A stretch of DNA of 64,000 nucleotides from a virus. Its lineage: Duplodnaviria > Caudoviricetes. Every line of letters begins with the position of its first letter. Position 1 is the first letter of the stretch. The stretch spans positions 32,001-96,000 of IMG/VR virus record IMGVR_UViG_3300031867_000013. One strand, written 5' to 3'. The notes under the pieces were generated by a model that made no database searches, was not told the origin of the DNA, and saw only the letters and a program-made list of their open reading frames with translations. Of the stretch, positions 2,911 through 32,667 are shown one piece after another. The position numbers and the translations under genes are program-made.

Positions 2911-3032
2911 TGTACTATCACTCCTTTATATACTTGTAAAATATTTTATACACGAACAAAACATTTTACTGTTAAAATTTTCTTTTTATATTTCTATATA
3001 TTATAACATATTTTGGATATTTTGTCAAGTTC

Positions 3033-3533
3033 TTATCTATTTTCATACCACTCTATATTACAAATAATTCTATTCATAGTATTTACAGGGGCATTTTCAT
3101 CACCATCACTAAATATGGCTGGTGTTGTAATATGTACTCCTAATCCATAATCTTTCTGTAATACTTTTTGGAACTCATATAACATATTCATAACATCTTG
3201 TGTTAATTGATACATTTGTCTATAACATATATCATCAAAATCTATTTCGTCTGTTTGACCGCCCTTGACGTATAAATCTATCCAAAATTGTACCATTGCA
3301 CCTATTCGTTGCGATTGATGATTTGTATCTTCTTCGCTACCAAATAATATCCATATTGCAGGAAATTCACCTACATTACCGCTACCTACCTTTATTTTTA
3401 GGTCATCTCTATCTACTAAATAATTAAAAGGTCTTTCTCCGTATTTAGTGTGATAGTTTTTTATAAAATCCCTAAGTCTGATTGCTATATCATACCATCT
3501 TAATTTCTTTAGCATGGAATCATCCTCTAACAT
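3033..3533 (-). CDS. Putative tail terminator / head-tail joining protein
   Basis: Size, 'FPAIWI' motif and synteny immediately upstream of tail tube. Confidence 0.5.
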   Translation of the reverse strand: MLEDDSMLKKLRWYDIAIRLRDFIKNYHTKYGERPFNYLVDRDDLKIKVGSGNVGEFPAIWILFGSEEDTNHQSQRIGAMVQFWIDLYVKGGQTDEIDFDDICYRQMYQLTQDVMNMLYEFQKVLQKDYGLGVHITTPAIFSDGDENAPVNTMNRIICNIEWYENR

Positions 3534-3534
3534 T

Positions 3535-3966
3535 TTAATTTCTTGCTATAGGAACTACCATTGGGAAAGTTCTCTTTTTAGCTTGTATTCCATCTGTAAA
3601 TGTTTCTGCGGTAAGTCCTTGTTCAAATTGGTCTAAAAGTTGTTTATAGTATTTATATTTTAAAGCAAATGAATCTAAGTTTGCATCTTTACCAACACTC
3701 ATTTGCGCTTTATATAAAGCAGTAAGTATATAAGCATAAAATAAAGCTATTTTAGATATTTTATACGGAGTTGGTATTGCTATTTGACTTGCTTTTACTC
3801 CAAAACTTAATGCCAATGCTTCTACATATTCAGATGATTCTTTTATTATTGCAGGAGTTACATATGTTTTTAATAATGAATCTCCTGTTGGCGTTTTTAA
3901 TAATAATGGGTCAAAATATGCTCTATATTCTTCTCCATCTACTATTATTGTATATGTACTTGCCAT
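3535..3966 (-). CDS. Putative head-tail connector protein
   Basis: Synteny between capsid and tail genes. Confidence 0.45.
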   Translation of the reverse strand: MASTYTIIVDGEEYRAYFDPLLLKTPTGDSLLKTYVTPAIIKESSEYVEALALSFGVKASQIAIPTPYKISKIALFYAYILTALYKAQMSVGKDANLDSFALKYKYYKQLLDQFEQGLTAETFTDGIQAKKRTFPMVVPIARN

Positions 3967-8851: not shown

Positions 8852-10198
8852 TTATATACCTATATTCTTTGCGGCATCTTTTATCTTATTCTTATCTTTT
8901 AATTTCTCTACTGCATACCTCATGCTGTCCACACAATGGTCATTACGTTTGAGAGGACGGTCAATACCTCTTTCTTGTGCTTTATCGTCCCATACATATG
9001 TATTTATTTCTCTTAATAAATTTTTACATTCTGTAGATACTTTTAATTTTCCTTCTGCTATATATGTAGCTACATCTCTTATACCATCTATAACAGAGTT
9101 TCTTGCATCTTTTGTTCTCATACCACTTCTATGTAATTGAACTTTGAAACTTGCCGCCGCAGGGTCTACAACAATATCCATTTTATTAAATGGTATTTGC
9201 GTATATTCATATGTTTGACCTAAAAACTCTACCATATCATCTGCAAATTCTAAATCAGTTTTTTGTGTATCATAATTACCGTGTTCATTCGCTTCTGCAC
9301 GACCTTCAAAATAATATTCTCTAACACAATATAATATTCCATTAAATGTTTTCATCCACAACGTAAAAACTGTAGCATTTCCTGTACCATAGTCTACACC
9401 AACGCACCATTTTATTGCTTCATCATAAGGAACTTCATCGGGTCTTACTACATTCTTCTCATTTGTAAACATATCATATATTCTACCCTCTGCTGATACC
9501 CATTTCCCTAAAATATATCTTGAATAGAATACACCACCATACATTTTCTTATATCGCTCTTTTACTTTATCAGATAATGATAAATTATCATCCATAGTAA
9601 AATGAACATATAAACCATTTTTATTATCTAATTGTTGCAATACATTTTTATAAAACCAATGATAAGGCCCAGCAGGATTACAATTACAAAAACATTTTGC
9701 ACCCTCTACCGATAATCTTGCAGTTGCTTGATTAAAAAATGATTCTGGTAATAGAGCGATTTCGTCCATTAGAACCGAGCAGAGTGTCATGCCCTGTATA
9801 TAATCTTGTGAAGATTCATCTTTAGCACCTGCGATGTATATATAATTAGTTATATCACCTTTAGAAACTTCTATATAATTTTCGCTACGATGTTCTAAAC
9901 AATTATATCCTAATGTTAATAACATTTGCTTTAATGGATTTAATACATTTCTTCTAAATGTTCCTACTGATTTTCCTGCCATTAATGCGTCTTGTTGATT
10001 AAAATTATTCATTACAAACATTACAAAAGATAATGCCATGCAAATTGTCTTACCAGACCTTATTGCACCGTCAGCAATAACCATAAACTTATCTTTTACA
10101 GGACTATCTTTGTGCCACCAATTTAATATCTTTTTCTGTTTTTCCGAAAAAGGTTGAAATTGAAAACCTTTTACCTTCCTTTTTTTACTATTTGCCAC
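8852..10198 (-). CDS. terL: Terminase large subunit (PBSX-like)
   Basis: Walker A 'GAIRSGKT', Walker B 'VLMDE', 'NCNPAGPYHW', nuclease 'GVDYG', 'DHCVDSMRY'. Confidence 0.95.
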   Translation of the reverse strand: MANSKKRKVKGFQFQPFSEKQKKILNWWHKDSPVKDKFMVIADGAIRSGKTICMALSFVMFVMNNFNQQDALMAGKSVGTFRRNVLNPLKQMLLTLGYNCLEHRSENYIEVSKGDITNYIYIAGAKDESSQDYIQGMTLCSVLMDEIALLPESFFNQATARLSVEGAKCFCNCNPAGPYHWFYKNVLQQLDNKNGLYVHFTMDDNLSLSDKVKERYKKMYGGVFYSRYILGKWVSAEGRIYDMFTNEKNVVRPDEVPYDEAIKWCVGVDYGTGNATVFTLWMKTFNGILYCVREYYFEGRAEANEHGNYDTQKTDLEFADDMVEFLGQTYEYTQIPFNKMDIVVDPAAASFKVQLHRSGMRTKDARNSVIDGIRDVATYIAEGKLKVSTECKNLLREINTYVWDDKAQERGIDRPLKRNDHCVDSMRYAVEKLKDKNKIKDAAKNIGI

Positions 10199-10214: not shown

Positions 10215-11033
10215 TTAATCATCTTCTTTTAATGTTTCATTTAAGTCTGCATTTATATCTTCATTTCCCCACGAACTCTTAGAACTTTCACCTAATGCAG
10301 AAAGTATATTACTATCAATATTTTCTTCAACTTTCTTTTGTGCTTTCCACTCAAAGAAATTCCTTATATTTTCCCACGCTTTCATCTTATCGGGTAATTG
10401 AATAGTGATACCATCTTTTCCTTGTTTAATTGAAACAATTATACTTGTATCTACTGTATCGCTATCTACTAAATGCATACGATTTACTTTCTTAAATTTT
10501 TGTTCTCCTGTATCTGGGTCAAATCTTAATGTACCATCTACATTATATTCTGGTATTTCTTCTTCACTAAATTTGATATAATCACCTATATCTGCATTTG
10601 CTATTTTTAATTGTGTTTCTATATATTTTGATGGGTCTATTTCATATCCTATTGTTAATATTTTCTTTAATTTCTTTATAGCATTTTGTATATTTGATTT
10701 ATTTAATAATCTATAACCATATAATGATGCTAACTTCTTATCCCCACCAAAAGATTTTAAGTATGCTTGCGTAGCATTTGTAGATTCTAAATAGTATAGT
10801 ACAAAATCTTGTTGTTTTGGTGTAAGACCTAATCCAACTAATTCATCTACTATTTTATCATTTACTTGATCTTTTCTTATATTTTCTGACCTTCTAAAAT
10901 CATCGTATATATCTTCTACGTCCACATCTTCTTTTCGTGGTCTGCCACGTTTAGGCTTTATTTCTATATTCTTTTCTTCTAACTTTTCATCTATATTTTC
11001 TTTTAAATTATCTGTTAGATATGTTTCTGCCAT
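10215..11033 (-). CDS. terS: Terminase small subunit
   Basis: 'LTPKQQDFVLYYL..NATQAY' HTH and 'DKMKA' motif; upstream of TerL; AT-hook 'KRGRPRK'. Confidence 0.85.
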   Translation of the reverse strand: MAETYLTDNLKENIDEKLEEKNIEIKPKRGRPRKEDVDVEDIYDDFRRSENIRKDQVNDKIVDELVGLGLTPKQQDFVLYYLESTNATQAYLKSFGGDKKLASLYGYRLLNKSNIQNAIKKLKKILTIGYEIDPSKYIETQLKIANADIGDYIKFSEEEIPEYNVDGTLRFDPDTGEQKFKKVNRMHLVDSDTVDTSIIVSIKQGKDGITIQLPDKMKAWENIRNFFEWKAQKKVEENIDSNILSALGESSKSSWGNEDINADLNETLKEDD

Positions 11034-17478: not shown

Positions 17479-17794
17479 TGGTGGACTAGACGGAGGCGAA
17501 TCCGTGTCCGAAATTACTACATTTCAAAGAACTATCACAATAGCTATATTAACTGATAGCAACAGTAGTAGAAAAGGAGATTTTATTATGAAAAACTTTG
17601 TTGTATTTATTTAATATTTTTCTGCATTGACCTACAACATAGTATTACAGAAAAAGAAACTGATAGCAACTTATGCCGCTACAGCTTCATATTCAAAAGA
17701 AAAGTTGTCAGTTATTATACTGTTTAGACTTTAACGCTGTACATTCCGTGTGAACTTTGAAATTTCATAACTCCGTCGAAACATAAACTAGCCC
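17479..17794 (-). ncRNA. ssrA: tmRNA; tag (A)DNFSFEYEAVAA* at 17709-17671
   Basis: 5' GGGCTAG...TTTCGAC, 3' GGACACGGATTCGCCTCCGTCTAGTCCACCA, G3:U70 pair, ATAACT-GAC resume context, tag ending in AA-stop. Confidence 0.92.
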
Positions 17795-19182: not shown

Positions 19183-19250
19183 TACATATTTATACATATT
19201 TATACATATTTATATTTTAAATACTTATTAAATACTTATTAAATACTTAG
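19183..19250. repeat. Short tandem repeats (TACATATTTA x3; AAATACTTATT x3) in the AT-rich divergent intergenic region
   Basis: Directly visible direct repeats. Confidence 0.6.
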
Positions 19251-19633: not shown

Positions 19634-20155
19634 TTGAAACCTGTTATATCAAGCAAAAATACAAAAGGAATGGTAAATTTTACAAAATCTATGGTTCATA
19701 GTATAGCAAATATAGCTTCTGTATCTCCAAGAAGTTTAGCTTTATTTTTAGCTTTATGTTCTTATGCTGATGACAATGGTTCATTAATTACAGACAATAA
19801 AACATTAGCACATTTAGTTAAAACAGAAACAAGAAAAATTGATTATTGTTTAAGAACACTACAGGAACATGGATTAATAGAAATACATAATGTAAATATT
19901 AAATATAATCACGATATATTTGGTAAAATACATGATAAACAAAATTATTATAAAACTAATAAACAAGAATGGAATATTACAGGAGATAGATATTTAACTA
20001 CAATAACTATTAGTGGTACATATAAAAGAATTTATCTTAATAAAGAATATGTTTCTTTTGCTAATGGTTATTATAATACATTATTATTATATGTTAAAAA
20101 TAATTTATACTATGATACAAGATTATCAGACAATCAAATTATTGAAGAAAGGTGA
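19634..20155 (+). CDS. RepL-like winged-helix DNA-binding protein
   Basis: 'LFLALCSYADDNGSLITDNKTLAHLV..ETRKIDYCLRTLQEHGLI'; AAGGAGG RBS, TTG start. Confidence 0.5.
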   Translation: MKPVISSKNTKGMVNFTKSMVHSIANIASVSPRSLALFLALCSYADDNGSLITDNKTLAHLVKTETRKIDYCLRTLQEHGLIEIHNVNIKYNHDIFGKIHDKQNYYKTNKQEWNITGDRYLTTITISGTYKRIYLNKEYVSFANGYYNTLLLYVKNNLYYDTRLSDNQIIEER

Positions 20156-20160
20156 GAATT

Positions 20161-20334
20161 ATGGAAGTACAAAATGCAAACTTAAATATTCGTATTCCTC
20201 TTAAACTTAGGGAGAGATTTGTAGAAGTAGCAAACAATAATGGTTTAACACATTCTGTTGTTTTGCGTACAATGGTAGCAGAATATGTAAGAGCAAATGG
20301 AAAACTAGAAATATTTAAACATATTGGTAAATAA
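20161..20334 (+). CDS. Ribbon-helix-helix DNA-binding protein
   Basis: 'NLNIRIPLKLRERF...NGLTHSVVLR'. Confidence 0.65.
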   Translation: MEVQNANLNIRIPLKLRERFVEVANNNGLTHSVVLRTMVAEYVRANGKLEIFKHIGK

Positions 20335-20359
20335 TTATAAGTAAATAAAGGGTGATTTC

Positions 20360-21157
20360 ATGTTAAATAAAGAGCAAATAGCTTCTGAAAAACTTAACAG
20401 TCACTTATTTACACATCGTATTAGTGCAGATAAAGCATTTATTGTTGTTCTATCTGATATACATGAAGGAATAAATCATAGAGCCTATTTTAAATCTATT
20501 ATTGATTTTATTTTAACAATTCCTAATTGTTATGTCATTATAGGTGGAGATTCTATAAATGCTTCTATTAGAGGTTCTAAAGGAAATACTACAGAAGAAT
20601 GGTCTAGTGGTGATAAACAAATATATGACCTTGTAGATGACTTAAAACCATTAGTAGATGATAATAGAATTATAGCAATAGGTGAAGATGGTAATCATAA
20701 TGATAGAATTTATAATGATGCTTATATTTCTGTAAATAAAATGATTGCAATACTATTAGGTATTCGTGAAAAATATACAGGTAATATGTGTATTGGTATG
20801 ATAAATGTAAATAAGTGTTGTTATACTTTAAGTATTATACATAAGAATAGAAAGACAAATAATTATTATGAATATCAAAGAGTAGATTTATTAATTAAAG
20901 AACATTGGCATGATTTAAAATATGAATGTAAAGCTGTATTTGATTTTAATAAAACAGCTAAAACAATTTCTCTTGTGCCAACATATGAAATTTATAATGG
21001 TTCTTTCTTAAATCTTCCCGATTATGGAATGAAAGCAGGATATAGACCTCAATTCATGGGTACATATTTTATTGAATTAAGTGGTAAAGACCGTAATATT
21101 TCTATTTGGGAAGATAATAAACTTTATATGGCGATAAAAGGTGGATATAAGGTATGA
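20360..21157 (+). CDS. Calcineurin-like metallophosphoesterase
   Basis: 'SDIHEG', 'GGD', 'GNHN', 'HWH' motifs. Confidence 0.75.
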   Translation: MLNKEQIASEKLNSHLFTHRISADKAFIVVLSDIHEGINHRAYFKSIIDFILTIPNCYVIIGGDSINASIRGSKGNTTEEWSSGDKQIYDLVDDLKPLVDDNRIIAIGEDGNHNDRIYNDAYISVNKMIAILLGIREKYTGNMCIGMINVNKCCYTLSIIHKNRKTNNYYEYQRVDLLIKEHWHDLKYECKAVFDFNKTAKTISLVPTYEIYNGSFLNLPDYGMKAGYRPQFMGTYFIELSGKDRNISIWEDNKLYMAIKGGYKV

Positions 21158-21582
21158 AAAATAAACCTATTGAGTATTTTCAGAATGATAAAGAATTTCA
21201 AAAATGTGCAAAAGAATGGCAACATAAACTTTTCTTAGATGATTGGTTTATTAAATTTGAACTTATAGAACAAGAAATATATGCTGATGATAAAGAATCA
21301 AAACTATATGGATATTGTCAAAGAATATGGGAAAATCACGAAGCAGTTATACGTATTTCTCATGTTAAAGGAACAAATGGTATAGTAACTAAAGGTATTG
21401 AAGAATTAACTTTAATACATGAATTATTACATTGTAAACTATTTCCATTAGAAGTAGATGAAGAACATGCTTCTTATGAAGCATCATCTTTGGAATTACA
21501 AAATCATATTCATATTGAACAACTTTCTAAATCTTTACTCATGGCAAAATATAATCTTGACTATAATTATTTTATGAGTTAA
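21154..21582 (+). CDS. HExxH metallopeptidase-like protein
   Basis: 'TLIHELLH'. Confidence 0.55.
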   Translation: MKNKPIEYFQNDKEFQKCAKEWQHKLFLDDWFIKFELIEQEIYADDKESKLYGYCQRIWENHEAVIRISHVKGTNGIVTKGIEELTLIHELLHCKLFPLEVDEEHASYEASSLELQNHIHIEQLSKSLLMAKYNLDYNYFMS

Positions 21583-21595
21583 AGGACTGATTTGT

Positions 21596-22276
21596 TTGGC
21601 AAAACGAACAAAAAAGGATGAATTTTCATTAGAAACAAATAAAGACAGAGAACGATTTTATAAGAAAATGGATAAAGACCAATTAGCTTTATTCAATTCT
21701 ATTCAAGACAATATATTTACTTTTTGTGAAGCTAAAGCCGGAACAGGTAAGACCTTAATATCTGTAAATTCTTTATTACATCTATTATTTTTAGGTGAAA
21801 TAAATCATATAATATATTTACAGAAATGTTCTCAAAGATATTTAAATACTGGGTTCCTCCCTGGGACTATTGAAGAAAAAACTGATGCACTATGGACACC
21901 ATTTTATGAAGCTATGGCTACATTAGGTTATCAACCACAAAAAGTAGATAAATTTATTGAACAAGAATCAATTATACTTACTACTGATTTTAATTTACGT
22001 GGTATTAATTTTGAAAAGTGTGGTATTATAATTGATGAAGCAGAAAATCTTGACACAGAAACATTAAAACTTATATTTACTAGATGCCATGATGATTGTC
22101 ATGTAGTTCTTTTAGGAGATAGACTACAAAAAGACAATAAAGGTAATCATAATCAAGACTTTGTAGAATATGGTGATTATCTTGCAAATAGTAGTGTAGG
22201 TAATAAATGTTATTTAACTAAAAATTATAGAGGTAAATTCAGTCAACTTGCAGAAGAATTTAAGGAGGAATTATAA
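21596..22276 (+). CDS. phoH: PhoH-family ATPase
   Basis: 'AGTGKT', 'GFLPGTIEEK', 'LRGINF', 'IIDEAEN', 'GD..QKD'. Confidence 0.9.
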   Translation: MAKRTKKDEFSLETNKDRERFYKKMDKDQLALFNSIQDNIFTFCEAKAGTGKTLISVNSLLHLLFLGEINHIIYLQKCSQRYLNTGFLPGTIEEKTDALWTPFYEAMATLGYQPQKVDKFIEQESIILTTDFNLRGINFEKCGIIIDEAENLDTETLKLIFTRCHDDCHVVLLGDRLQKDNKGNHNQDFVEYGDYLANSSVGNKCYLTKNYRGKFSQLAEEFKEEL

Positions 22277-22278
22277 TA

Positions 22279-22644
22279 ATGTCAACTTATATTATTTTTT
22301 CAATGGGAGAACCAAAGTATAAAATTAAAGCAGATTTTTATGACGTACATCAACATTTTATGTCATTTTATGATGAAAACGATAATCTTATTTGTTCTAT
22401 CAATGTAGATGAAATTGATTGTGTAGTAGATAAAGAACATATGAATAAACTTGATTTTCTTGAACCTGTAGATGAAGAAGAATGTGATGATTGTAATGAA
22501 ATCGAGTGTGAATATCATCCATCTAATTTTGAAGAACCTAAAAAAGATGAACAAAATAAATTAAAACCAACAGAAAAACAAAAGTCCGAAGTAGATTTTG
22601 ATGAATTATTTAGGCGTGTATTAGGTTTACATGGCGAAAAGTAA
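22279..22644 (+). CDS. Hypothetical acidic protein
   Basis: ORF with AAGGAGG RBS. Confidence 0.55.
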   Translation: MSTYIIFSMGEPKYKIKADFYDVHQHFMSFYDENDNLICSINVDEIDCVVDKEHMNKLDFLEPVDEEECDDCNEIECEYHPSNFEEPKKDEQNKLKPTEKQKSEVDFDELFRRVLGLHGEK

Positions 22645-23212
22645 AGAAACCATAGAATTAGAAAACCTGTTATTTGAGTATAATAAATTTAACGGGTTTT
22701 TCTGTATATTTGAGTGTACAATCGGATTTGGTGGTGGCGGTAGAGTAGATTGTATTTCTATTGACACAAGGAGTTGTATCAGAGCGTTTGAAATTAAGGT
22801 CACTAAATCCGATTTTCACTCTAAACACGGACATAATTTTGTTGGTAATCTTAATTATTATGTTATACCACATAAACTATATAAAGAAGTACAAAATGAA
22901 ATACCAAATGATATTGGTGTTATGTGTCCTAAAAATGGGCAGTTATATATAGTTAAAAGTGCTAAAAAAGTACAATTAAAAGAACCTTTATATAAAATGG
23001 AATTATATATGATTCGCTCTTTATTTCGCGAATATGAAAAATCTATTTATGCGGAAAATAAAGAATTATTAAATTCATATGAACGTGAAAAACGTAGACT
23101 TATGAAAGAACGAGATACTTATTATAGACTTTTACAAACCTTAAACGCAAATATTCGTGAGTATTTAGGATTAAATTATAAAAATTTTAGAAAATGGTTG
23201 CACTCTGATTAA
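22631..23212 (+). CDS. PD-(D/E)XK nuclease-like protein (MmcB-like)
   Basis: 'RVDCISID...AFEIKVTKSDF...NYYVIP'. Confidence 0.65.
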   Translation: MAKSKETIELENLLFEYNKFNGFFCIFECTIGFGGGGRVDCISIDTRSCIRAFEIKVTKSDFHSKHGHNFVGNLNYYVIPHKLYKEVQNEIPNDIGVMCPKNGQLYIVKSAKKVQLKEPLYKMELYMIRSLFREYEKSIYAENKELLNSYEREKRRLMKERDTYYRLLQTLNANIREYLGLNYKNFRKWLHSD

Positions 23213-23242
23213 TTTTGTGGTAATATAAAAAGGAGAATTAAG

Positions 23243-23599
23243 ATGTTCAATTCACAAGCATTTATAAAACTTCATCCCGACGATTTTGATTTTTGTATTC
23301 AACTTTTAGACGCAAAAATGATGAATGTAAATACTAAATTTATCAAGTATAAAATTTTAGTAGATAATTATAAAGAAGCAGAAAAACATAAAAACTTCTT
23401 AAAACAACTTTGGGAAACATTTTCTTTTAAGAATTTTGATTCTTACCATGCTTATCTATGGAACGAACATGAAATGGGAACTTTATATAATAAAAAACAA
23501 CGAATTAAAGCTATGCTTGATTGGTTTGTTGGATTAAAAAGACCTATTTATATTTCGGTAGAAGATTATAAATTTATTCTTGATGAGGAAGATACTTAA
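23243..23599 (+). CDS. Hypothetical protein
   Basis: ORF with AAGGAG RBS. Confidence 0.55.
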   Translation: MFNSQAFIKLHPDDFDFCIQLLDAKMMNVNTKFIKYKILVDNYKEAEKHKNFLKQLWETFSFKNFDSYHAYLWNEHEMGTLYNKKQRIKAMLDWFVGLKRPIYISVEDYKFILDEEDT

Positions 23600-23788
23600 A
23601 TGCTTAAACTTAAAACTAAAGAAGAATATATAGAAGCAATTAAAACAATCAATACAACTCTTTTAAAACTTAAATCCCCTATTGACGCAACAAGAAAAGC
23701 ACAAGGGGATAAATTTGCTAATAGTCTTATTGAACAATTAAAGAATAATAGAAAATATTATATAGAACAATTAGAAAAATTTACTTAA
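23600..23788 (+). CDS. Hypothetical protein
   Basis: Abuts upstream ORF. Confidence 0.5.
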   Translation: MLKLKTKEEYIEAIKTINTTLLKLKSPIDATRKAQGDKFANSLIEQLKNNRKYYIEQLEKFT

Positions 23789-23853
23789 TACACTTTTTCA
23801 TAGGAAAAATGCAAAATTTTTCACATTTTTCATAGGAATAAATGGTGATATAA

Positions 23854-24393
23854 ATGGAAGAATTTATAAATTGGTTAAAGTCTATTGGTTTTGAAGAATT
23901 TAATGATTATTGTAGATTACAAATAAACATTAAAGGTATAAATAAACCTACTTTTTGTTATATAGATAAAAATATTATATATACTAAAGAACAAGTAATA
24001 GATTATATAAATCAAGCTAAATTAAGAGCAATAAAATATAAAATGGGGGAATATACTTTGACAGAAAAAGAATTATTTATGCTTCGTACTTTTATTGAAG
24101 CACTTGGATATGAAAATAAAGATAATGGAATATGGAAACTTCATTTTACTTATAATATGCCAGAAAATACTTATGAAGATTCTGCTATTCTTGATGAAGA
24201 AGATTTGAAGTCTATGACACTTAATGACGCTATGCTACGTGCTATGGATTCTAAAAGGTCTAAAGAAACAGAATTAGAATTTAAGATGAAATATGATACA
24301 GAAATGCCCTTAACTAAAACTGTAGATTTAGATGATTCCGTAAAAGACTTTATTTCAGCAAACAGAAATGCAGATTGTCCTAATTGTCTATAA
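23854..24393 (+). CDS. Hypothetical protein
   Basis: ORF with GGTGA RBS. Confidence 0.55.
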   Translation: MEEFINWLKSIGFEEFNDYCRLQINIKGINKPTFCYIDKNIIYTKEQVIDYINQAKLRAIKYKMGEYTLTEKELFMLRTFIEALGYENKDNGIWKLHFTYNMPENTYEDSAILDEEDLKSMTLNDAMLRAMDSKRSKETELEFKMKYDTEMPLTKTVDLDDSVKDFISANRNADCPNCL

Positions 24394-24409
24394 TAGTTGG
24401 TGATATATT

Positions 24410-24634
24410 ATGTTTATACCACATGAAATTATTATTATAGGTACGATGATACATAATAGAAAACATGATGTAACATATAAAGAAGTACAAGAATATATAA
24501 AACGTAGAGGATTTAATGTAGAATTAGATGAAAATTTTACTACTTTTGAATTTATAAAAACTACAGATAAAGGCTATCATATTGATAATATACCGCCTAT
24601 GAATCCTACAATGGTACAATTTTTAGCACAATAG
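24410..24634 (+). CDS. Hypothetical protein
   Basis: ORF with GGTGA RBS. Confidence 0.5.
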   Translation: MFIPHEIIIIGTMIHNRKHDVTYKEVQEYIKRRGFNVELDENFTTFEFIKTTDKGYHIDNIPPMNPTMVQFLAQ

Positions 24635-24806
24635 AAGGTAAATAACTTTATAAAGGAATGATATAGTTTGGCTCACGCAGAAAATCGTCGTGAACGTGTA
24701 GAATGGCAAAAATATAAAGAAACAGAGAATGAAGAAAGAGATAAATTCTCTAAAAAACGCCATGCACATAATAAAAATAAACGTAAAAACAAAGGAGATT
24801 ATAACA

Positions 24807-25091
24807 ATGAGTGAAAATAATATTAATGATAATCAAAAATTCTTTGAATTTGCAGAGAAACTTAATAATGAAACATTAGAACTTATGAAATTATATGATA
24901 GTGGTATGCCGTCAACTACTAAAAAAGAACTTTTAGAAAAAATTAAATTAAGAATTGATATTTTAAGCCCAATAAAAGAACTTCAATTAAAAGAACAGCA
25001 AATTGCGGCGGCTCAACAATTAACACAAGGGGATTTTATGAAAAATTTTAACCTTAAAGACTTAATAGGCGCATTAAAAGGAAATTCATAA
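24807..25091 (+). CDS. Hypothetical protein
   Basis: Start re-called to the ATG after AAAGGAG. Confidence 0.55.
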   Translation: MSENNINDNQKFFEFAEKLNNETLELMKLYDSGMPSTTKKELLEKIKLRIDILSPIKELQLKEQQIAAAQQLTQGDFMKNFNLKDLIGALKGNS

Positions 25092-25116
25092 TAGAAATAT
25101 ATAAGGACTGATAATT

Positions 25117-25347
25117 ATGATTTTAAGTGGGCGTATTTCTAAAGAAAATGCTAATAAATTAGGATATCAATCTTCATTTTCTTTTCGTCTTGTTGCGGGA
25201 CTAAATAAAAGAAAAGAAGTAGTTATGTGTATCACAAAACAAGACAATAATACACAAGAAACTTATAATTTTATTGTTCCCGATAATATGGTAGATGATT
25301 TATATTTTAATAAAGAACAAATGGAGGAATTACAAAATGATAACTAA
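25117..25347 (+). CDS. Hypothetical protein
   Basis: ORF with AAGGA RBS. Confidence 0.5.
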   Translation: MILSGRISKENANKLGYQSSFSFRLVAGLNKRKEVVMCITKQDNNTQETYNFIVPDNMVDDLYFNKEQMEELQNDN

Positions 25348-25912
25348 TATTCCATTAAATATTAAAAATCCTTATACACATGATTCATATTGTTTTGATT
25401 TACCATTGTTTCCTATTACGTTACTAACAGGGCAGTATAAAACATCTATTATAAATTCCTTACAAAAGCAACATGACCCATATGATAAGATGACTAATTT
25501 TATTGTGTTTGATAATTTTATGTTTAATTCTTCATTAAATAGTAATCGACCAAAAGAAATAAAAAAGCTAATAGAATGTTTACATTCAAATGATATATTT
25601 TTAGTAGATGATATTGATTTATTCTATGACATACATAATAATGCCATAGATATATTTGAAAACGTGCCGAATGATGTACAAATTATATGTTCAGCGCATA
25701 ATTATGATTTTATCTATTATTTCTTAGGCAAAATATTAGATTTACAGCATAATACAGAAGAAAAAACATATGGAGTAACACGTATAAGACAATATAAAAA
25801 TGAAATACGTACTGCTACAATAACAGATATAAATTATAATATAGAACGATATGCAGAAGGACTACAATGGGAATCATATTTAATAGGAGACTATAGCCAT
25901 GCTACAGAATAA
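25337..25912 (+). CDS. Degenerate P-loop ATPase-like protein
   Basis: 'ITLLTGQYKTSII', 'IFLVDDID', 'QIICSAHN'. Confidence 0.4.
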   Translation: MITNIPLNIKNPYTHDSYCFDLPLFPITLLTGQYKTSIINSLQKQHDPYDKMTNFIVFDNFMFNSSLNSNRPKEIKKLIECLHSNDIFLVDDIDLFYDIHNNAIDIFENVPNDVQIICSAHNYDFIYYFLGKILDLQHNTEEKTYGVTRIRQYKNEIRTATITDINYNIERYAEGLQWESYLIGDYSHATE

Positions 25913-26099
25913 AGTATATTTATCTTTATTAGACGTAATAGAATCTATAAAAGATAGTGCGCTACAAGAAGAATTAATGTATCACTATGAAAAAGAAAAG
26001 CGCATACAAAAGAATGAAATAAATAGATTAGAAGATGAAATAGATAATCTAAATGAAGAAATAGATGATTTATATGGTAGACTTGGATATGATGATTGA
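25899..26099 (+). CDS. Hypothetical coiled-coil protein
   Basis: ORF with AGGAG RBS. Confidence 0.5.
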   Translation: MLQNKVYLSLLDVIESIKDSALQEELMYHYEKEKRIQKNEINRLEDEIDNLNEEIDDLYGRLGYDD

Positions 26100-26131
26100 A
26101 TAATATATATAACAGTACATTAAACAGCACA

Positions 26132-26168
26132 TTGGACGGATATATTTTTATCCGTCTATTTTTTTTTA
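26132..26168 (+). terminator. Terminator of plus-strand block
   Basis: GGACGGATA/TATCCGTCT hairpin plus long T run. Confidence 0.75.
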
Positions 26169-26616
26169 TATTTTTATAGTTTTATATTTTTATATGTATA
26201 TACAAAAGGTAATTCAAAATTCTCCAAAAATTTTTCGACACAAAGAGGATATACATATAAGAAGTGAAATATTATTTAGTGTTTTTGAGGCATTTCATTT
26301 AGTATTTTTGGGGTGTATTATTATATGTTTTTGGGATAAATAATGTTCAATATAATAGACATTATAATTTATAGCGCAATAAAATTTATATGGCGCAACA
26401 TAAAGATATAAATACATATATTTAAATAAATTTCGGCAAAAACATAAAGGTGCAGAATTTAATTAAAAATCTATTTGGGCGAAAAAATAAATAAAGAAAA
26501 GAAGATAAGTATATAGATAAAAAATAATATAATATGCTATAATTACATTTTGACATATAGCGTTACATAGGGGTAACTTGAAGTCTGAAAAAATTTGAAC
26601 GACTGGAATAACGTAT

Positions 26617-26772
26617 TGAGAACGATTCTCACTTGAACCCCGCGGAGGTAGTTGAGAATGATGATCAGTTGAGAACGATTCTTAATTGATAATGGATTCT
26701 CATTTGAGAATGGTTTTCATTTGGGAATGATTCGTAATTGATAATACGTTCTCAAATGAGAATGGATTCTCA
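26617..26772. repeat. Array of 8 Fur-box-like palindromes (TGAKAAT-N1-2-ATTCTCA), 17-18 bp period
   Basis: Copies start at 26617, 26653, 26670, 26687, 26705, 26722, 26739, 26757. Confidence 0.75.
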
Positions 26773-26781
26773 ATTAGAACG

Positions 26782-26816
26782 TGCATAAAAATTTATGGTG
26801 TATGAATAAAAATTCA
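26782..26816. promoter_or_regulatory. Tandem ArgR/AhrC-like boxes
   Basis: TGCATAAAAATTTA and TGAATAAAAATTCA, 21 bp apart. Confidence 0.5.
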
Positions 26817-27201
26817 TCACATAAAAGTATGCTTTTTTTGCATAGATTCTTTCATTTTATGCTTTTTTCGTTTTCCTGCATTTTTTCGGCGTTTTCTTTT
26901 TTCGCACATAGCGGAAGGATATTTTCATATATAGCCATAAAACGCGCAGAAAAGCCCCTAGAAACGACTAAAACATCTTGCCCTATAGTTTATACTTAAA
27001 AAATGCTTTAATGGCTTAGAGGTGATCCCAGCGAGTTTAGAAGGAATTTAGATATTTATATAGGACTTTATACTCTACAAAAAAATTTCATAGGACTTTC
27101 GGGCAAAAATGAGAAAAAGATATTGCAAATATATTGTCCCTCTGATATACTTAACATGATCAGAAAATCACACAACAAAACAGCGAAGGGAGGCGAAAAT
27201 A

Positions 27202-27348
27202 ATGGCGTTCAGACATTCTTTCAGCGTTGGATTTATGGCAAGGCAAAACAAGCCTGACATGGTAACAAAGAAAACTCTTGTACACTTCGCAAGCGTACCA
27301 GCAAAAGCAGGACGGACGGCGAAAAAAGCAGACAAGGCGAAGAAGTAA
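27202..27348 (+). CDS. Small basic hypothetical protein (48 aa)
   Basis: GGGAGG RBS; MAFRHSFSVGFMARQ...KKADKAKK; below track cutoff. Confidence 0.45.
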   Translation: MAFRHSFSVGFMARQNKPDMVTKKTLVHFASVPAKAGRTAKKADKAKK

Positions 27349-27408
27349 AAAAGGGCAAAGGGAAGGGCTAATAAGCCCTTCCCGATAATAAAAGAGGAGA
27401 TATATATT

Positions 27409-27528
27409 ATGTGGTACGTATTTTTTAAGGAAGATTCTTGGGAATGTGGATGGAGTGTTAAGAGCAGGGAAGAAGCAGAACGTTATTGTAATGCTAATCC
27501 AGATTATTGCTTCGTATATGTAGGATAG
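27409..27528 (+). CDS. Small hypothetical protein (39 aa)
   Basis: AGAGGAG RBS; MWYVFFKEDSWECGW... Confidence 0.45.
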   Translation: MWYVFFKEDSWECGWSVKSREEAERYCNANPDYCFVYVG

Positions 27529-27542
27529 AGGAGGTTTACAAA

Positions 27543-27809
27543 ATGAAGGTTTATAACATGACAAGTAATAGCACAGGGCGCAAAGTGGCAAATCAGTTTA
27601 TTATCGAGCATGAAGGAAAGGTTTATTTCCAAAGCTACAACACCATTATTGCAATGAAACAAGCAGGGAAAATAATTATTGATACTAACGCCGAAAATTA
27701 TTCTAAAACGACCAGCAAATATCTATATCAATTCTTGAATACTGACAGAAAAAGCCTTTTGCAAGCAGTAAAAGATGGGCGAATTGCACGGGCAGACCTT
27801 AACGCATGA
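27543..27809 (+). CDS. Conserved-looking phage early protein
   Basis: AGGAGG RBS; 'VANQFII...YFQSYNTIIA...YSKTTSKY'. Confidence 0.6.
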   Translation: MKVYNMTSNSTGRKVANQFIIEHEGKVYFQSYNTIIAMKQAGKIIIDTNAENYSKTTSKYLYQFLNTDRKSLLQAVKDGRIARADLNA

Positions 27810-27872
27810 GACAATAGCACAAGGGCGGGGCGAATGTTCCCTGCCCTATAAATTCAAAGGGAGGATTTAAAA

Positions 27873-28145
27873 ATGAAAATGTTTAATGTAACATTCAATA
27901 AAACGGGCGAATATGGCGATATGTATGAGGAAAGCAACGAGGCAGTTTTTCTTGCTGATAATATCGAGGATATTGTCGAATACTTGAAAAAAACTTATCT
28001 TCCCAACGGAGAGCAGAAAACGCTTGAAGAAATGATTATTTTGTCTCACGATGTAGAGGATTTTTCCCCATATGTTATCCATGAAATATTAGTCTATGAG
28101 ATTAATATTAAGCCGATAACAGATAAAATTAGTTATTTGGGATAG
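27873..28145 (+). CDS. Acidic hypothetical protein
   Basis: GGGAGG RBS. Confidence 0.55.
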   Translation: MKMFNVTFNKTGEYGDMYEESNEAVFLADNIEDIVEYLKKTYLPNGEQKTLEEMIILSHDVEDFSPYVIHEILVYEINIKPITDKISYLG

Positions 28146-28389
28146 GAGGGCTTTTTATGTATAAAGTGGTAGGGCGAACCTATACAGGGCAACACGTTGA
28201 AATGATTATTTCTGTCAATGCTCTTTATGCGTGCGCTATTGTGGAATATATTGAAAACATACAAACAGGGGAGCGTGTCTATTATGAAAATAAATGATAT
28301 AATGAATTTATTATTGCTTGTTTTAATGGGTTTTATGTCGTTTCTGTCAATGTTTCGCGCATGTATGAATTTTTAGGAGGTATAATAAT

Positions 28390-28602
28390 ATGAAGCCGAT
28401 TGCTTATTATGCTTTATTCGTTGATTTCCTCATTATGATATATGATATTGAGTACGGGATTAATGATTATATAATATATACATATAAAACACCATCGAAG
28501 GAAAGCAGGAAATTTAAGGCGAAAATTAGATATGATAAGGCAGGAAACGCCTATTTTCGGCAAAAGAATCCTGTACCGCTTTCGGAGTGCATGAAATATT
28601 AA
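28390..28602 (+). CDS. Hypothetical protein
   Basis: AGGAGG RBS, followed by terminator AAGCCCCA/TGGGGCTT. Confidence 0.55.
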   Translation: MKPIAYYALFVDFLIMIYDIEYGINDYIIYTYKTPSKESRKFKAKIRYDKAGNAYFRQKNPVPLSECMKY

Positions 28603-28643
28603 GCCCCATTTGGGGCTTTTTTATTGCCTATAAAACAGTACAT

Positions 28644-29373
28644 AATATTCTGAATATTTTTACTATTTCTTGATACATAATTATCAGAATATTATAAACA
28701 TTATAATATATCACAATATTTTGCCAATGCCATAGAATTATCAGAAAATTAAGATGTGTCATAATATTATGTTAATCATCTGAAATTGTCAGAATATTGT
28801 ATGTATCATAATATTCTGAAAACTAGATGTGCATGAATTGTCAGAATATTAAAAACATTATATGTATTTGAATGAATTGTACATAGAACGAATACAATTT
28901 AATATGTCAATAGGAAAAAAGTCCAAAATGTATGTTCTATATAAAAAATAGGAGTAAAGTCTATTGACACATAAAAACAAGGGCAAATAGTCCTATTATT
29001 TTAGAACAAAAATCGAACACTTCTAAGCCTTGCAATTATTGAAAAATCGTCATAGACGGACGAAAATCTATGTGCCTATATAAATATATGCAGACAACAT
29101 AAAAAACGATTCTAGGGGCATTTACGGGCGAATAAAGGGTATTTCTATATATTCATATATACCCATATTTTCCCTAAAAATATTTTTGTCTTTGACTTTT
29201 TGACTTATATGCAAGTTGTCAGAATATTATAAATACACATAATATTTATAGTATTATTAATATTATACTAATTATTTGATGCTATACATTTGTAAATTAA
29301 CATAATTTTCTGTCAATTTATATATCTATAATATTTTGAAAATTCAATAGATACATAAAGTTGTCAGAATATT
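28644..29373. promoter_or_regulatory. CodY-box-like cluster 1 (about 10 sites)
   Basis: e.g. AATTATCAGAAAATT 28736, AATTGTCAGAATATT 28784 and 28836, AATTTTCTGTCAATT 29304; consensus AATTTTCWGAAAATT. Confidence 0.65.
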
Positions 29374-29670
29374 TTGCAATATATGTGTCAATGGGAAATA
29401 TGTCTTATTTTTATTTGTCAATAGACCATAAGACTTATTTTTATATTTATTATATTTTCGCGTCACATAGGGATATAGAAAAATGTATATGGCTTTTATT
29501 CGTGCATAAATAGGGCTACAATCAATTTTTATATGCTATTGGTATATCTATATAAGGATAAAATAAAAAGGGCTTAAATAGCCCTTTATGCTTGTTATAT
29601 TGAATTGTGTATATAAAAAGACAATTCCCCTGCCGTAATTAGCAGGGGAAATATAGGGAAGATTATTTTA

Positions 29671-30588
29671 TCAGCCTACCAATGTTGAAAGCAATTCTAA
29701 AGCATTGTCAAGCAAAGCATTTCCGCGAATAACGCTTTTCATTTGATTTTCCCTGTAGGTCTTGGTCATGCGGGCAGGTTCAGAATGATAGGCAAAATCC
29801 GATACAGCCTGCAAAAATCCATAAGCTGTGCCGCGCAAATTGCCTAAATCATCAGCGTTATAGGCTGAAATTAAGCCGCTACGTTGATTTTCCACGATGT
29901 CCCGTTTGCGCGGCGTAGCGTCAGCAGGGAGCGGGAGCAAATTCCCAACGAGCGCATTAAACATAGTGTTTGAAACGTGAATACTTGCAAGGCGTTCTGT
30001 TTCTTGCTGAAAAATGGTACGATAGGAATTTTCATGTTCCATGATATTCCCGACCATTTCCAACTTCCCTGCTACGTCTCCTTTGTGGAGAAGGGAAAAC
30101 GACCGAACGGCTTTCTTGAAGGCAAGGTTCAAAGTGTTAGAACAAGCAGGACGGACGGGAGTGATGGCGGCGCGAATTGCGCCTTTCCCATCATGCGTAC
30201 TTGAGAAAACAACATACATTTTCATTGATTCGCCAAGGGTCATAAATTCGGGGACTTCTACGCACATCCATATTGTTTTGCCACCACTGACAATTCCCGC
30301 CGAAACGAATTTGAAATCTGTCAAATACGTTAAGAAGGAAAAAGCATCTTTGTTTTGTACGGTCTGATAACGGTCTGATACCACACCAAGAAAAGCGTTA
30401 TTGTCAGAACGGACGTTTACCTTCATGGGTGTTTCGAGGATATTACCGTCTGCAAGGCGAATCAATGCGGGAGTTTGTACGACTTCCCAGTTCATATCAG
30501 CAAGGGAAATTGCGCTTTCCACATCCACCGCGCCCGAAATATCCTGTCCATACTTCCAAGGCTCTACACGATTCATCATTTTCAACAT
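29671..30588 (-). CDS. DUF932-family phage/plasmid protein
   Basis: 'LGVVSDRYQTVQNKDAFSF', 'STHDGKGA', 'TPVRPACSNTL', 'GTAYGFLQAVSDFAYH'. Confidence 0.85.
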   Translation of the reverse strand: MLKMMNRVEPWKYGQDISGAVDVESAISLADMNWEVVQTPALIRLADGNILETPMKVNVRSDNNAFLGVVSDRYQTVQNKDAFSFLTYLTDFKFVSAGIVSGGKTIWMCVEVPEFMTLGESMKMYVVFSSTHDGKGAIRAAITPVRPACSNTLNLAFKKAVRSFSLLHKGDVAGKLEMVGNIMEHENSYRTIFQQETERLASIHVSNTMFNALVGNLLPLPADATPRKRDIVENQRSGLISAYNADDLGNLRGTAYGFLQAVSDFAYHSEPARMTKTYRENQMKSVIRGNALLDNALELLSTLVG

Positions 30589-30778
30589 TTTCAACACTCC
30601 TTTTTTAAAATAGATGATTAACCTATACATATTAAACCACAAACAAATAATTATTGCAAGCATTTTTTTTATAAAAATCATAAAAAAATTTTCCTTCCTA
30701 TTATAAGGGAAAAATTTTTATAATTTACATATCTATTGAAATTGAGAATAATTTTTATTTGCCCATCGAGGATTTTAT

Positions 30779-31107
30779 AATTTTCTGACAATTCCATAGG
30801 AAGATATAATAATATTCTGAAAATTTCAGGCGAATAGAGGAACACAAAATTTTCTGAAAATTTATAAAAATTTGACTTCCATATAATTGTTTTAAGCGAT
30901 TTTTTCAGACTATTCCATATATTTATACTAATAAGAATTTTTCGTGTCTTAAAACTAATTTCTTAAAGTATTGAAAATACTGACTTTTCAGGCTATTATG
31001 ACAATTATAAACATAAATGTAAATATTCTGAATATTATACTAAATATTTAATGTATGGATTCTTATATATAGTATAATATTCTGACAGATATAATATTCT
31101 GATAATT
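30779..31107. promoter_or_regulatory. CodY-box-like cluster 2, upstream of the DUF932 gene
   Basis: Perfect AATTTTCTGAAAATT at 30848; near-matches at 30779, 30811, 31022, 31076, 31093. Confidence 0.65.
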
Positions 31108-31233
31108 TTATGGCGCAAATAAAGATTTCAAAAAATTATGTGTTCCTTTAATAGATTAAAGTATAAAAATGTCAAGATATATATATACAATAAAAAATTC
31201 CCCCGCAAAAAGCAGGGGAATATGTATATATAT

Positions 31234-31410
31234 TTATTCTTCCTCCTTTTGTACGTCTACGACTTCTTTTACACCCAAGAAACGGAAATTATGCAAGTCA
31301 GAAGGAGTAAACCACTTTTTGCTTGCAATTTTAGCCGCTTCTTTTTCGTTCTTTGCATCAACGTAAATCTCCCCCGTAAAAACAACGTCTACTTGCACTT
31401 GATACGTCAT
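31234..31410 (-). CDS. Small hypothetical protein (58 aa)
   Basis: AAGGAGATGT RBS; MTYQVQVDVVFTGEIYVDAKNEKEAAKIA...; terminator downstream. Confidence 0.6.
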   Translation of the reverse strand: MTYQVQVDVVFTGEIYVDAKNEKEAAKIASKKWFTPSDLHNFRFLGVKEVVDVQKEEE

Positions 31411-31526
31411 AAGAACATCTCCTTTTCATATAATAAATTCAACCTAACTATATTATACACATTACAGGATATAATGCAAGTGTTTTTTATAAAAAATCCT
31501 AAAATATTTTTCTTTCTATTATAAGG

Positions 31527-32667
31527 AATTGTCAGAATATTTAGTGTCTTTTGACAATGCACATTTGTTGGAACATTTTGTATTCTATATATGGTAAAAA
31601 TCATACTATTCTGAATATTTGCCTTGCTAGAGTAAGAGATTAAATTTTCAGAAAATTTCAAATTTGTCCACGGCATATCAAAATTTTCAGAAAAATCTAA
31701 ATAATATAATACGTCAAATATATCTGAAATGTGCATAAATACTGACAATTAGGAATATTTCGGCGCAAACAAAAAGGAAACATAATATTCAGAAAATTAG
31801 GCAATTTTTTCCTATATAGAGAAATACAAATTAGTCAGAAAATTATAAAATATAAGAATAATATAATATGTCAGAATATAGGCGCAACATAAAGGAATAT
31901 GAATTTTCAGATAATTCTTATATATCTTATTATTCTTATATTTCGCGCAAAACAAAAAGGGATAAATATTCAGACAATTATATATAATCATATATTTCTA
32001 TATAATATTATATTTCTATATATAATATAATAATCAGACAATATAGAATATTATATGTATTCTACCAATATACATTTGTCAGAAAGTTTTGTATTTTCCT
32101 ATAGGGAAAATTTATACTTTTCTGAAAACTTTCCTTGCGGCACTAAGGAAGTATAATTATCAGAAAATTATGATTTTGTCCACGAATAATCTGAAATTTA
32201 ATATTCTGACAATTTAAAATAAACTTTTTACTTGACAAATACAAATATAGGCAAATAGTACCAATAAAATAGAATGTATGTACGGGCTGGGAAGCCTTGA
32301 AATTAAAGGAAAATCGTCTGTATTCGACGAAAAAAGACTACCGAATATAAATATATGCGTACCATATAAAAAACGACTGGCAAGGCTGCCAGATAGGTTA
32401 AAATGGATTTTAAGTATTGACAAAAACCTAAAATTTTATCATTCTTTGACTTTTTGTCCAATAAAGTTATATGTCTATATATAATATAAATAGACATAAT
32501 AATATGAATTGTCAGAAAATTAGGGCGCGGCAAAAAACAAAAAAGAGAAAGAGAATCATTATATATAGAGAGAATATATATCAAATGAAAATAATTATTA
32601 TTATATGATAATGATTATAGCTATATATATAGACAATATTGCTATTTTTCATAGTTTTCTGAAAATT
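31527..32667. promoter_or_regulatory. CodY-box-like cluster 3 (about 15 sites)
   Basis: Perfect AATTTTCAGAAAATT at 31643; near-matches at ~31527, 31682, 31784, 31902, 31965, 32155, 32200, 32507, 32653. Confidence 0.65.

Follow-up and report, generated by a model that had tools for sequence, protein, structure and literature searches.

Fur boxes are textbook elements and, to our knowledge, have always served as operators, either for bacterial genes or for a single toxin gene carried by a phage. Placed in multicopy, they derepress a Fur-controlled reporter, which is the principle of the Fur titration assay. Some phages of Firmicutes are known to carry sites for other regulators of their hosts, phi29 having Spo0A boxes and GIL01 LexA boxes. 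Fur itself can occupy a 7-1-7 site as a single dimer or spread along DNA in extended arrays (PMC11353095, PMC5007448), and in Escherichia coli its sites form clusters that cover as much as 140 bp (Chen et al. 2007, PMC2189734). Sites within the E. coli clusters overlap, lying 3 or 6 bp apart, and 83% of the clusters are placed over a promoter (PMC2189734). Four Fur operators have been confirmed in Enterococcus faecalis (PMC6056675), where the sites read TGAGAACGATTCTCA at fhuD and feoAB, TGATAACGATTCTCA at fhuCBG and TGAGAATGATTCTCA at EF3082-85, and where deletion of fur raises expression of the operons concerned 5-18-fold (Latorre et al. 2018, PMC6056675). Among phages, T5 carries a set of repeats, Repeat Region 3, beside its injection stop signal, and the text describing these repeats makes no mention of Fur (Davison, bioRxiv 10.1101/866236). 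Our literature search turned up phage-borne genes under Fur control and, in bacteria, clusters of Fur sites, but no account of Fur-box arrays from the non-coding DNA of a phage and none of a natural phage Fur decoy.

Here we analyze eight tandem Fur-box-like palindromes in the non-coding DNA of a phage, which resemble each of these systems in part. Like the E. coli clusters and other extended Fur arrays, the phage array would set many Fur sites side by side (PMC2189734, PMC11353095), but its sites, 15-16 bp long and spaced 17-18 bp apart, are free of overlap. The 15-bp 7-1-7 palindrome is that of the E. faecalis operators; there, however, one chromosomal box sits at an iron-uptake promoter, whereas the phage has eight in tandem in gene-free DNA, away from a promoter core and with a 2-nt centre in three units. 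Many box copies competing for Fur are also the essence of the titration assay (method used in PMC1874648), and eight boxes multiplied by phage copy number would approach a plasmid-like dose, although the assay is a laboratory device. The phi29 and GIL01 sites likewise allow a host global regulator to be exploited through phage DNA with no phage-encoded copy, but they serve other regulators, are far fewer, overlap phage promoters and act in cis.

Results

The array lies in gene-free DNA of a tailed phage

The window, by which we mean the whole 64-kb stretch analyzed, corresponds to positions 32001-96000 of one viral contig, 117,886 bp long and 29.7% G+C, from a bovine-gut metagenome. The virus is a tailed phage of Bacillota type: its TerL, PolA, capsid and RNA-ligase matches point to Bacillota in general, and a tail-fibre search was uninformative as to the host. 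The assembly closes on itself with an overlap of ~149 bp. Portal, capsid and tail genes share the minus strand with the terminase genes, followed by a tRNA island at 11.2-18.2 kb (eight tRNAs and a tmRNA), a plus-strand block at 19634-26099 that encodes a DnaD-like initiator, an exonuclease and PhoH, and a minus-strand replication module from 36 kb (PolA, a UvsX-like recombinase, RNA ligase/kinase). Searches of the phage found neither a tyrosine integrase nor a Fur-family gene. They also found no di-iron small subunit of ribonucleotide reductase (RNR) and no NrdD beside the RNR large subunit, and the phage enzyme may belong to class II. The coordinates of these and the following features are collected in Table 1.

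Sequence inspection revealed eight palindromes of 15-16 bp within 156 bp of gene-free DNA (26617-26772). Units 2-8 begin at 26653, 26670, 26687, 26705, 26722, 26739 and 26757 and are joined by linkers of a constant 2 nt; Tandem Repeats Finder delimited them at 26652-26779 with a period of 17, 7.4 copies and a score of 102. The centre is 1 nt long in five of the eight units (7-1-7) and 2 nt long in units 4, 7 and 8 (7-2-7), which have perfect halves. Over the 16 half-sites, the preferred base recurs as T1 in 16, G2 in 14, A3 in 14, G/T4 in 15, A5 in 15, A6 in 16 and T/C7 in 16. The half-sites thus present the heptamer TGAKAAY in inverted repeat, which is one mark of a Fur-family 7-1-7 operator.

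Matches to TGAKAAY-N(1-2)-RTTMTCA with at most one mismatch number seven in the 64-kb window, and all seven fall inside the array, compared with ~0.5 per form in shuffled sequences. The form TGAKAAYNRTTMTCA contributes four of them, all in the array (shuffle mean 0.49; none of 100 shuffles reached four), and the form with a 2-nt centre contributes the other three, again all in the array (expected mean 0.59). A local Markov model of 26100-27200 predicts 0.01 matches per form. ORFs of at least 40 aa were absent from 26557-26780 on both strands, and the array sits within 1.1 kb that has no credible ORF, bounded by the hairpin at the end of the plus-strand block and the promoter-like element that precedes the next small ORFs. 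The layout, the repeat finder and the shuffles therefore bear out a first-pass annotation of this DNA, which had described eight Fur-box-like palindromes, seven of them packed with 2-bp linkers, in non-coding DNA about 350 bp before the next promoter. Further Fur-like sites that it had placed at 32550-32620 turned out to be near background: those at 32586 and 32606 are marginal, with 2 observed against 0.37 expected in an A+T-rich stretch (P ~0.05).

Table 1. Features of the phage and of two comparison loci. Positions are those of the window unless another sequence is named.
Feature	Position	Strand	Details
TerL, PBSX headful type	8852-10198	-	Packaging gene
TerS	10215-11033	-	2e-45
tmRNA gene, within tRNA island	17479-17794	-	Rfam RF00023, 51.3 bits, E 2.8e-17
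Perfect direct repeats	19183-19249		10 bp x3.2, 11 bp x3; Tandem Repeats Finder
DnaD-like replication-initiator gene	19634-20155	+	Just downstream of the direct repeats
Terminator-like hairpin	26133-26158	+	Closes plus-strand block 19634-26099
Promoter-like element, TAGATA-18-TATAAT with TG	26514-26543	+	Promoter scan
Promoter-like element, TTGACA-18-TAACTT	26550-26579	+	Our own reading of the sequence
Unit 1	26617-26631	no strand	TGAGAACGATTCTCA; perfect 7-1-7 palindrome, 0 mismatches
Spacer between unit 1 and units 2-8	26633-26651	no strand	TTGAACCCCGCGGAGGTAG; G+C-rich, 19 bp
Units 2-8	26653-26772	no strand	Contiguous, 2-bp linkers, period 17-18 bp
Trailing degenerate half-site, TTAGAAC	26775-26781	no strand	Direct reading
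ARG-box-like pair	26782-26817	no strand	21 bp start to start, direct repeat family D6; directly behind array
T-rich tract and terminator-like hairpin	26897-26919 (hairpin)		Before next genes
Promoter-like element, TTGCAA-17-TATACT with TG	27123-27151	+	Precedes small ORFs from 27202
RNR large subunit, 764-aa frame	genome 108561-110021, outside window	-	Only RNR subunit found
T5-like repeats (L001)	L001 3153-3175, ~3518-3740		Equal to Escherichia phage chee24 ~9146, 9511-9733
Sundance boxes (L227)	L227 161-309 (Sundance 1-323)		Includes perfect TGATAATGATTATCA

Fur boxes commonly overlap promoters, and this array does not; it begins 30-65 bp downstream of two weak promoter-like matches and ends 350 bp before the next. 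Promoter-like matches were found no more often than expected from shuffling (10 versus 10.5). If the two upstream elements are real, the array would extend from about +30 to +225 relative to their predicted starts. Sites resembling those of other host regulators adjoin it: the ARG-box-like pair includes, at 26803, TGAATAAAAATTCA, the sole perfect TGAATWWWWATTCA core in the 118-kb genome, and ~24 CodY-type boxes occupy 28644-32653, next to the array region.

The units match Fur operators of Enterococcus faecalis

The resemblance to Fur boxes reported by the first-pass annotation proved stronger than claimed, as the units are by sequence Fur operators that match the iron-uptake boxes of E. faecalis exactly. 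Unit 1 is identical to the fhuD/feoAB Fur box, the array consensus is the EF3082 box, and the TGATAAY halves are as in fhuCBG; the Fur box of the phage's own host may differ. From the Bacillus consensus TGATAAT-N-ATTATCA, which the annotation had used, the units deviate at position 4. Likeness to that consensus would say little by itself because, allowing three mismatches, it has 76 matches in this A+T-rich phage genome.

Other operators describe the units less well. The PerR consensus NTANAANNATTNTAN has T at position 2 and A at position 14 (PMC3458967), where 14 of the 16 half-sites in the array have G at 2 or C at 14. Compared by eye with the respective consensus sequences, Rex sites would have two mismatches per site and the wrong spacing for five units, and cre, LexA, CodY, SinR and parS were all poor fits. 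From its sequence, a Fur-family protein is a fairly likely ligand of the array.

Since the phage lacks a Fur gene of its own, the binder would be the host's. Among the ORFs flanking the gap we recognized no DNA-binding family, and most of the small neighbours belong to no known family. A host factor is favoured over a phage protein because the same box occurs in unrelated phages and across many phyla (see below), and Fur is such a factor. The phage therefore probably recruits or soaks up host Fur, to judge from the boxes it carries.

The array belongs to a conserved module

Contigs from four other runs, from different studies and other bovine-gut samples, retain the array at 90-99% identity. 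Among the 40 listed of 333 differences, changes affect the spacer position 26646, one linker and two centres; within half-sites they strike position 4 twice (G/T interchange) and other positions three times, in one case repairing unit 2, whose defective ATGATCA becomes ATTATCA. In the same 40, the invariant positions 1, 5 and 6 that match the consensus are untouched, which is suggestive only. Deletion variants jump from 26667 to 26780 or 26802, which would leave two units. The breakpoints of related contigs pile up at 26815, just behind the second ARG-type box, where one relative carries 1020 foreign bases before rejoining at 28333. Because relatives break or are swapped at this point, 26433-26815 appears to form one conserved module, made up of the array, the ARG pair behind it and the promoter-like elements in front, with variable DNA beside it.

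Neither of two more distant relatives, whose PhoH is 54% identical, has the array in the parts covered, blastn of 25000-29000 against GenBank phages gave no match, and searches through the 205-aa neighbour protein and DUF932 found no relatives. A metagenome scan with the G+C-rich spacer returned three chance matches only. With the array alone as query, blastn gave marginal matches (E 0.1-5), mostly in T5-like phages.

Tandem boxes recur in unrelated phages

Tandem 7-1-7 boxes are also present in viral contigs that are unrelated to this phage, with G+C contents of 30-56%, and in bacteria from several phyla. The nearest parallel is a 34-kb viral contig with 34% G+C (L217), in which divergently oriented blocks of genes are separated by 1.5 kb devoid of genes, and 11 tandem boxes fill 235 bp of this gap (2819-3051). 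Other viral contigs have arrays of eight (L021), six (L218), five (L026) and four units (L220), and another (L005) has three perfect copies just upstream of a DnaB-like helicase gene. Every other array found is exclusively 7-1-7, making the 2-nt centres peculiar to the window array. Apart from two matches in L005, a helicase and another weak one, no protein is common to our phage and the other array loci.

A contig of 16-17 kb related to the Clostridium symbiosum phages CS229P1-3 (L003, 12850-12881) and ~20 sisters (L002, L004, L011, L213 and others) carry two abutting Fur-type boxes. Two GAAC-N4-GTTC (LexA-type) boxes enclose this pair, which lies ~250 bp from the end of the contig, and the sequence behind the pair ends in ...ATTCTCAATTAGAACG, the same trailing end as that of the window array. 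Brevibacillus phage Sundance, a 134-kb siphophage of Firmicutes, has four Fur-type boxes in its 323-bp terminal repeat.

In T5-like phages a perfect AAATGAGAATGATTCTCATTT is accompanied by 4-5 Fur-box-like repeats at ~9.1-9.7 kb of the left terminal repeat, with similar arrays in L009, L012, L016, L024 and others. The correspondence with Repeat Region 3 of T5 goes beyond the boxes: both phages are large and virulent siphophages in type, and in both a long stretch without genes contains repeated Fur-box-like palindromes that sites for other host proteins adjoin (DnaA boxes in T5, ARG and CodY boxes here). The T5 repeats, however, lie ~40 bp apart within a 10-kb terminal repeat, whereas the window phage gives no sign of fixed ends.

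The motif in bacterial genomes

The same box precedes iron genes in some bacteria. Of four perfect sites in one Bacilli genome (G205), two stand immediately upstream (9-23 bp) of operons for FecCD siderophore permeases, and the others precede a nitroreductase and an ABC exporter. In a small genome with 32% G+C (L179), a TonB-dependent siderophore receptor is preceded by three boxes and a Fe(III)-type binding protein by another, and elsewhere (L060) a box lies upstream of a Fur-family gene. Clostridia MAGs from the ruminant gut contain a single perfect site apiece, upstream of either a divergent Fur-family gene or a gene for an ArsP-type permease.

Perfect sites are not enriched across Bacilli as a class, occurring in 67 of 401 sampled genomes versus ~57 in a reversed control, and their neighbours in these genomes are mixed, with iron genes only a part and catalase and hemerythrin proteins included. 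With neither an excess over the control nor uniform neighbours, the TGAGAAY variant is lineage-specific, and the phage's host may or may not use it.

Tandem arrays also occur on Bacteroidales/Rikenellaceae chromosomes (L071 2047-2203, L163 2997-3090, L100 1149-1260). These have 5-9 units, nine of them in L071, and repeat every 17 bp with 2-bp linkers, as the window array does. Their neighbours are ordinary, namely a hutH-like lyase and GH8, or a sugar hydrolase and PhoH-PIN, with no obvious iron genes adjoining.

A separate observation concerns Leptolyngbyaceae and Snowella MAGs (L046-L165), in which the CAGCAATTCTCAGTATGAGAATAATTCTCA motif is present in dozens of copies per genome, often ~108 bp from contig ends. 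These cyanobacterial repeats look like the end of a mobile element.

Discussion

The explanation that we tentatively place first, going by the sequence of the units, is that the array would be a row of operators for the iron-loaded Fur repressor of the host and would act foremost as a decoy. The decoy role ranks first because the array overlaps no promoter core and gives one phage genome roughly double the number of Fur operators confirmed in E. faecalis, which is four. Its eight sites lie in 1.1 kb of gene-free DNA in a replicating phage genome, with promoter-like elements nearby. Each 15-16-bp palindrome would take one Fur dimer, and the 2-bp linkers would let dimers pack into a continuous filament of ~160 bp in an iron-replete host. 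As phage DNA multiplies, eight sites per copy could draw Fur off the chromosome and so derepress iron uptake. The ArgR-type pair and the ~24 CodY-type boxes nearby could likewise titrate two further nutrient repressors; Fur, ArgR and CodY all bind DNA in times of nutrient plenty, and their titration would turn on uptake and biosynthesis at the very time when the phage has need of supplies.

That such a sponge is the main role of the array is possible, though short of likely. The phage has no obvious iron demand, given an RNR that lacks the di-iron small subunit, and Fur may be too abundant to titrate. For Fur binding of any kind, the 2-nt centres of units 4, 7 and 8 would shift the phasing of the dimer's half-sites. 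The conserved module, with its promoter-like elements, also fits a cis-regulatory cassette equally well. Under this second reading, Fur on the array would block or insulate rightward transcription from the elements at 26514-26579 into the variable small genes at 27.2-28.6 kb, permitting expression only at low host iron and, with ArgR, low arginine. The placement of the array just downstream of two promoter-like elements and behind a terminator suits this arrangement, as does the fact that relatives retain 26433-26815 but exchange what lies to the right of it, which resembles a promoter-operator cassette with variable cargo; in the L003-type contigs, moreover, two boxes stand among LexA-type boxes near the end in an evident control region. 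We nevertheless find control in cis somewhat doubtful. Eight sites far exceed what repression needs, and no unit covers a -35 or -10 element, unlike most Fur clusters (PMC2189734). The promoter-like matches are at shuffle level, a T-rich tract and a hairpin intervene before the next genes, and repressing an early region in well-fed cells would be odd for a phage that has no integrase.

The remaining explanations would assign the palindromes to other proteins or to other stages of infection. They could be sites of a phage DNA-binding protein at an origin, a partition locus or a nucleoprotein complex, their likeness to Fur boxes being coincidental. The many small neighbouring ORFs of no known family leave room for such a protein, the copies in L005 lie just upstream of a helicase gene, and mixed 1- and 2-nt centres with constant 2-nt linkers would suit a protein other than Fur; but identity to proven Fur boxes, the position of the motif before bacterial iron genes and its recurrence in phages that have no common protein (the L005 helicase and one weak match aside) make this unlikely. 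Replication in particular has a better address, since the direct repeats at 19183-19249 coincide with a strand switch and the minimum of cumulative G-C skew and are likely the origin. Origin iterons are direct repeats that accompany an initiator gene and an A+T-rich tract for unwinding, whereas the array units are palindromes, and the first-pass suggestion of an origin repeat is accordingly disfavoured. Its other alternative, a terminase site, has fared worse. Repeat arrays do serve as pac sites in some phages, but those of this terminase type are normally in or beside terS; here terS and the TerL gene lie 15.6 kb from the array and on the other strand, and because of that distance a pac site bound by the small terminase is very improbable indeed. 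A different host regulator, whether a Fur paralogue (PerR, Zur) or an unrelated dimeric factor, would agree with the single sites in Clostridia MAGs, which precede a Fur-family or ArsP-type permease gene and not iron uptake, and with the catalase and hemerythrin genes beside perfect sites in Bacilli; the mismatch to the PerR consensus at positions 2 and 14 and the exact match to the E. faecalis Fur regulon lead us to consider it improbable. By analogy with T5, host Fur might instead load onto gene-free DNA as it enters the cell, holding or shielding it once the first gene block (19.6-26.1 kb) is inside. The T5-like repeats beside the injection stop signal and the Sundance boxes in a terminal repeat lend this some appeal, yet it too is improbable here: a headful-type TerL and a self-closing assembly give no sign of fixed ends or stepwise entry, and Fur at the T5 site is likewise a prediction.

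Returning to host Fur as the ligand, a broader proposal, about which we are similarly doubtful, is that the array would be one module of a protein-free regulator island at 26.6-32.7 kb (eight sites for Fur, two for ArgR and ~24 for CodY) that soaks up or docks three host nutrient repressors. In that case large virulent phages would make general use of Fur-box arrays in gene-free DNA as a device that has so far gone undescribed, which would explain the injection-stop repeats of T5 as well.

If Fur merely represses one small phage transcript, the array would be an ordinary operator, remarkable for its copy number. The case lends itself unusually well to testing, as its units equal a published Fur box, and proteins for binding tests and a reporter already exist. 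If tandem Fur boxes in a phage that lacks Fur are what they seem, the phage would read the iron state of its host, or manipulate it, by DNA alone. Their recurrence in unrelated phages, including the long-unexplained repeats of T5, suggests a general principle.
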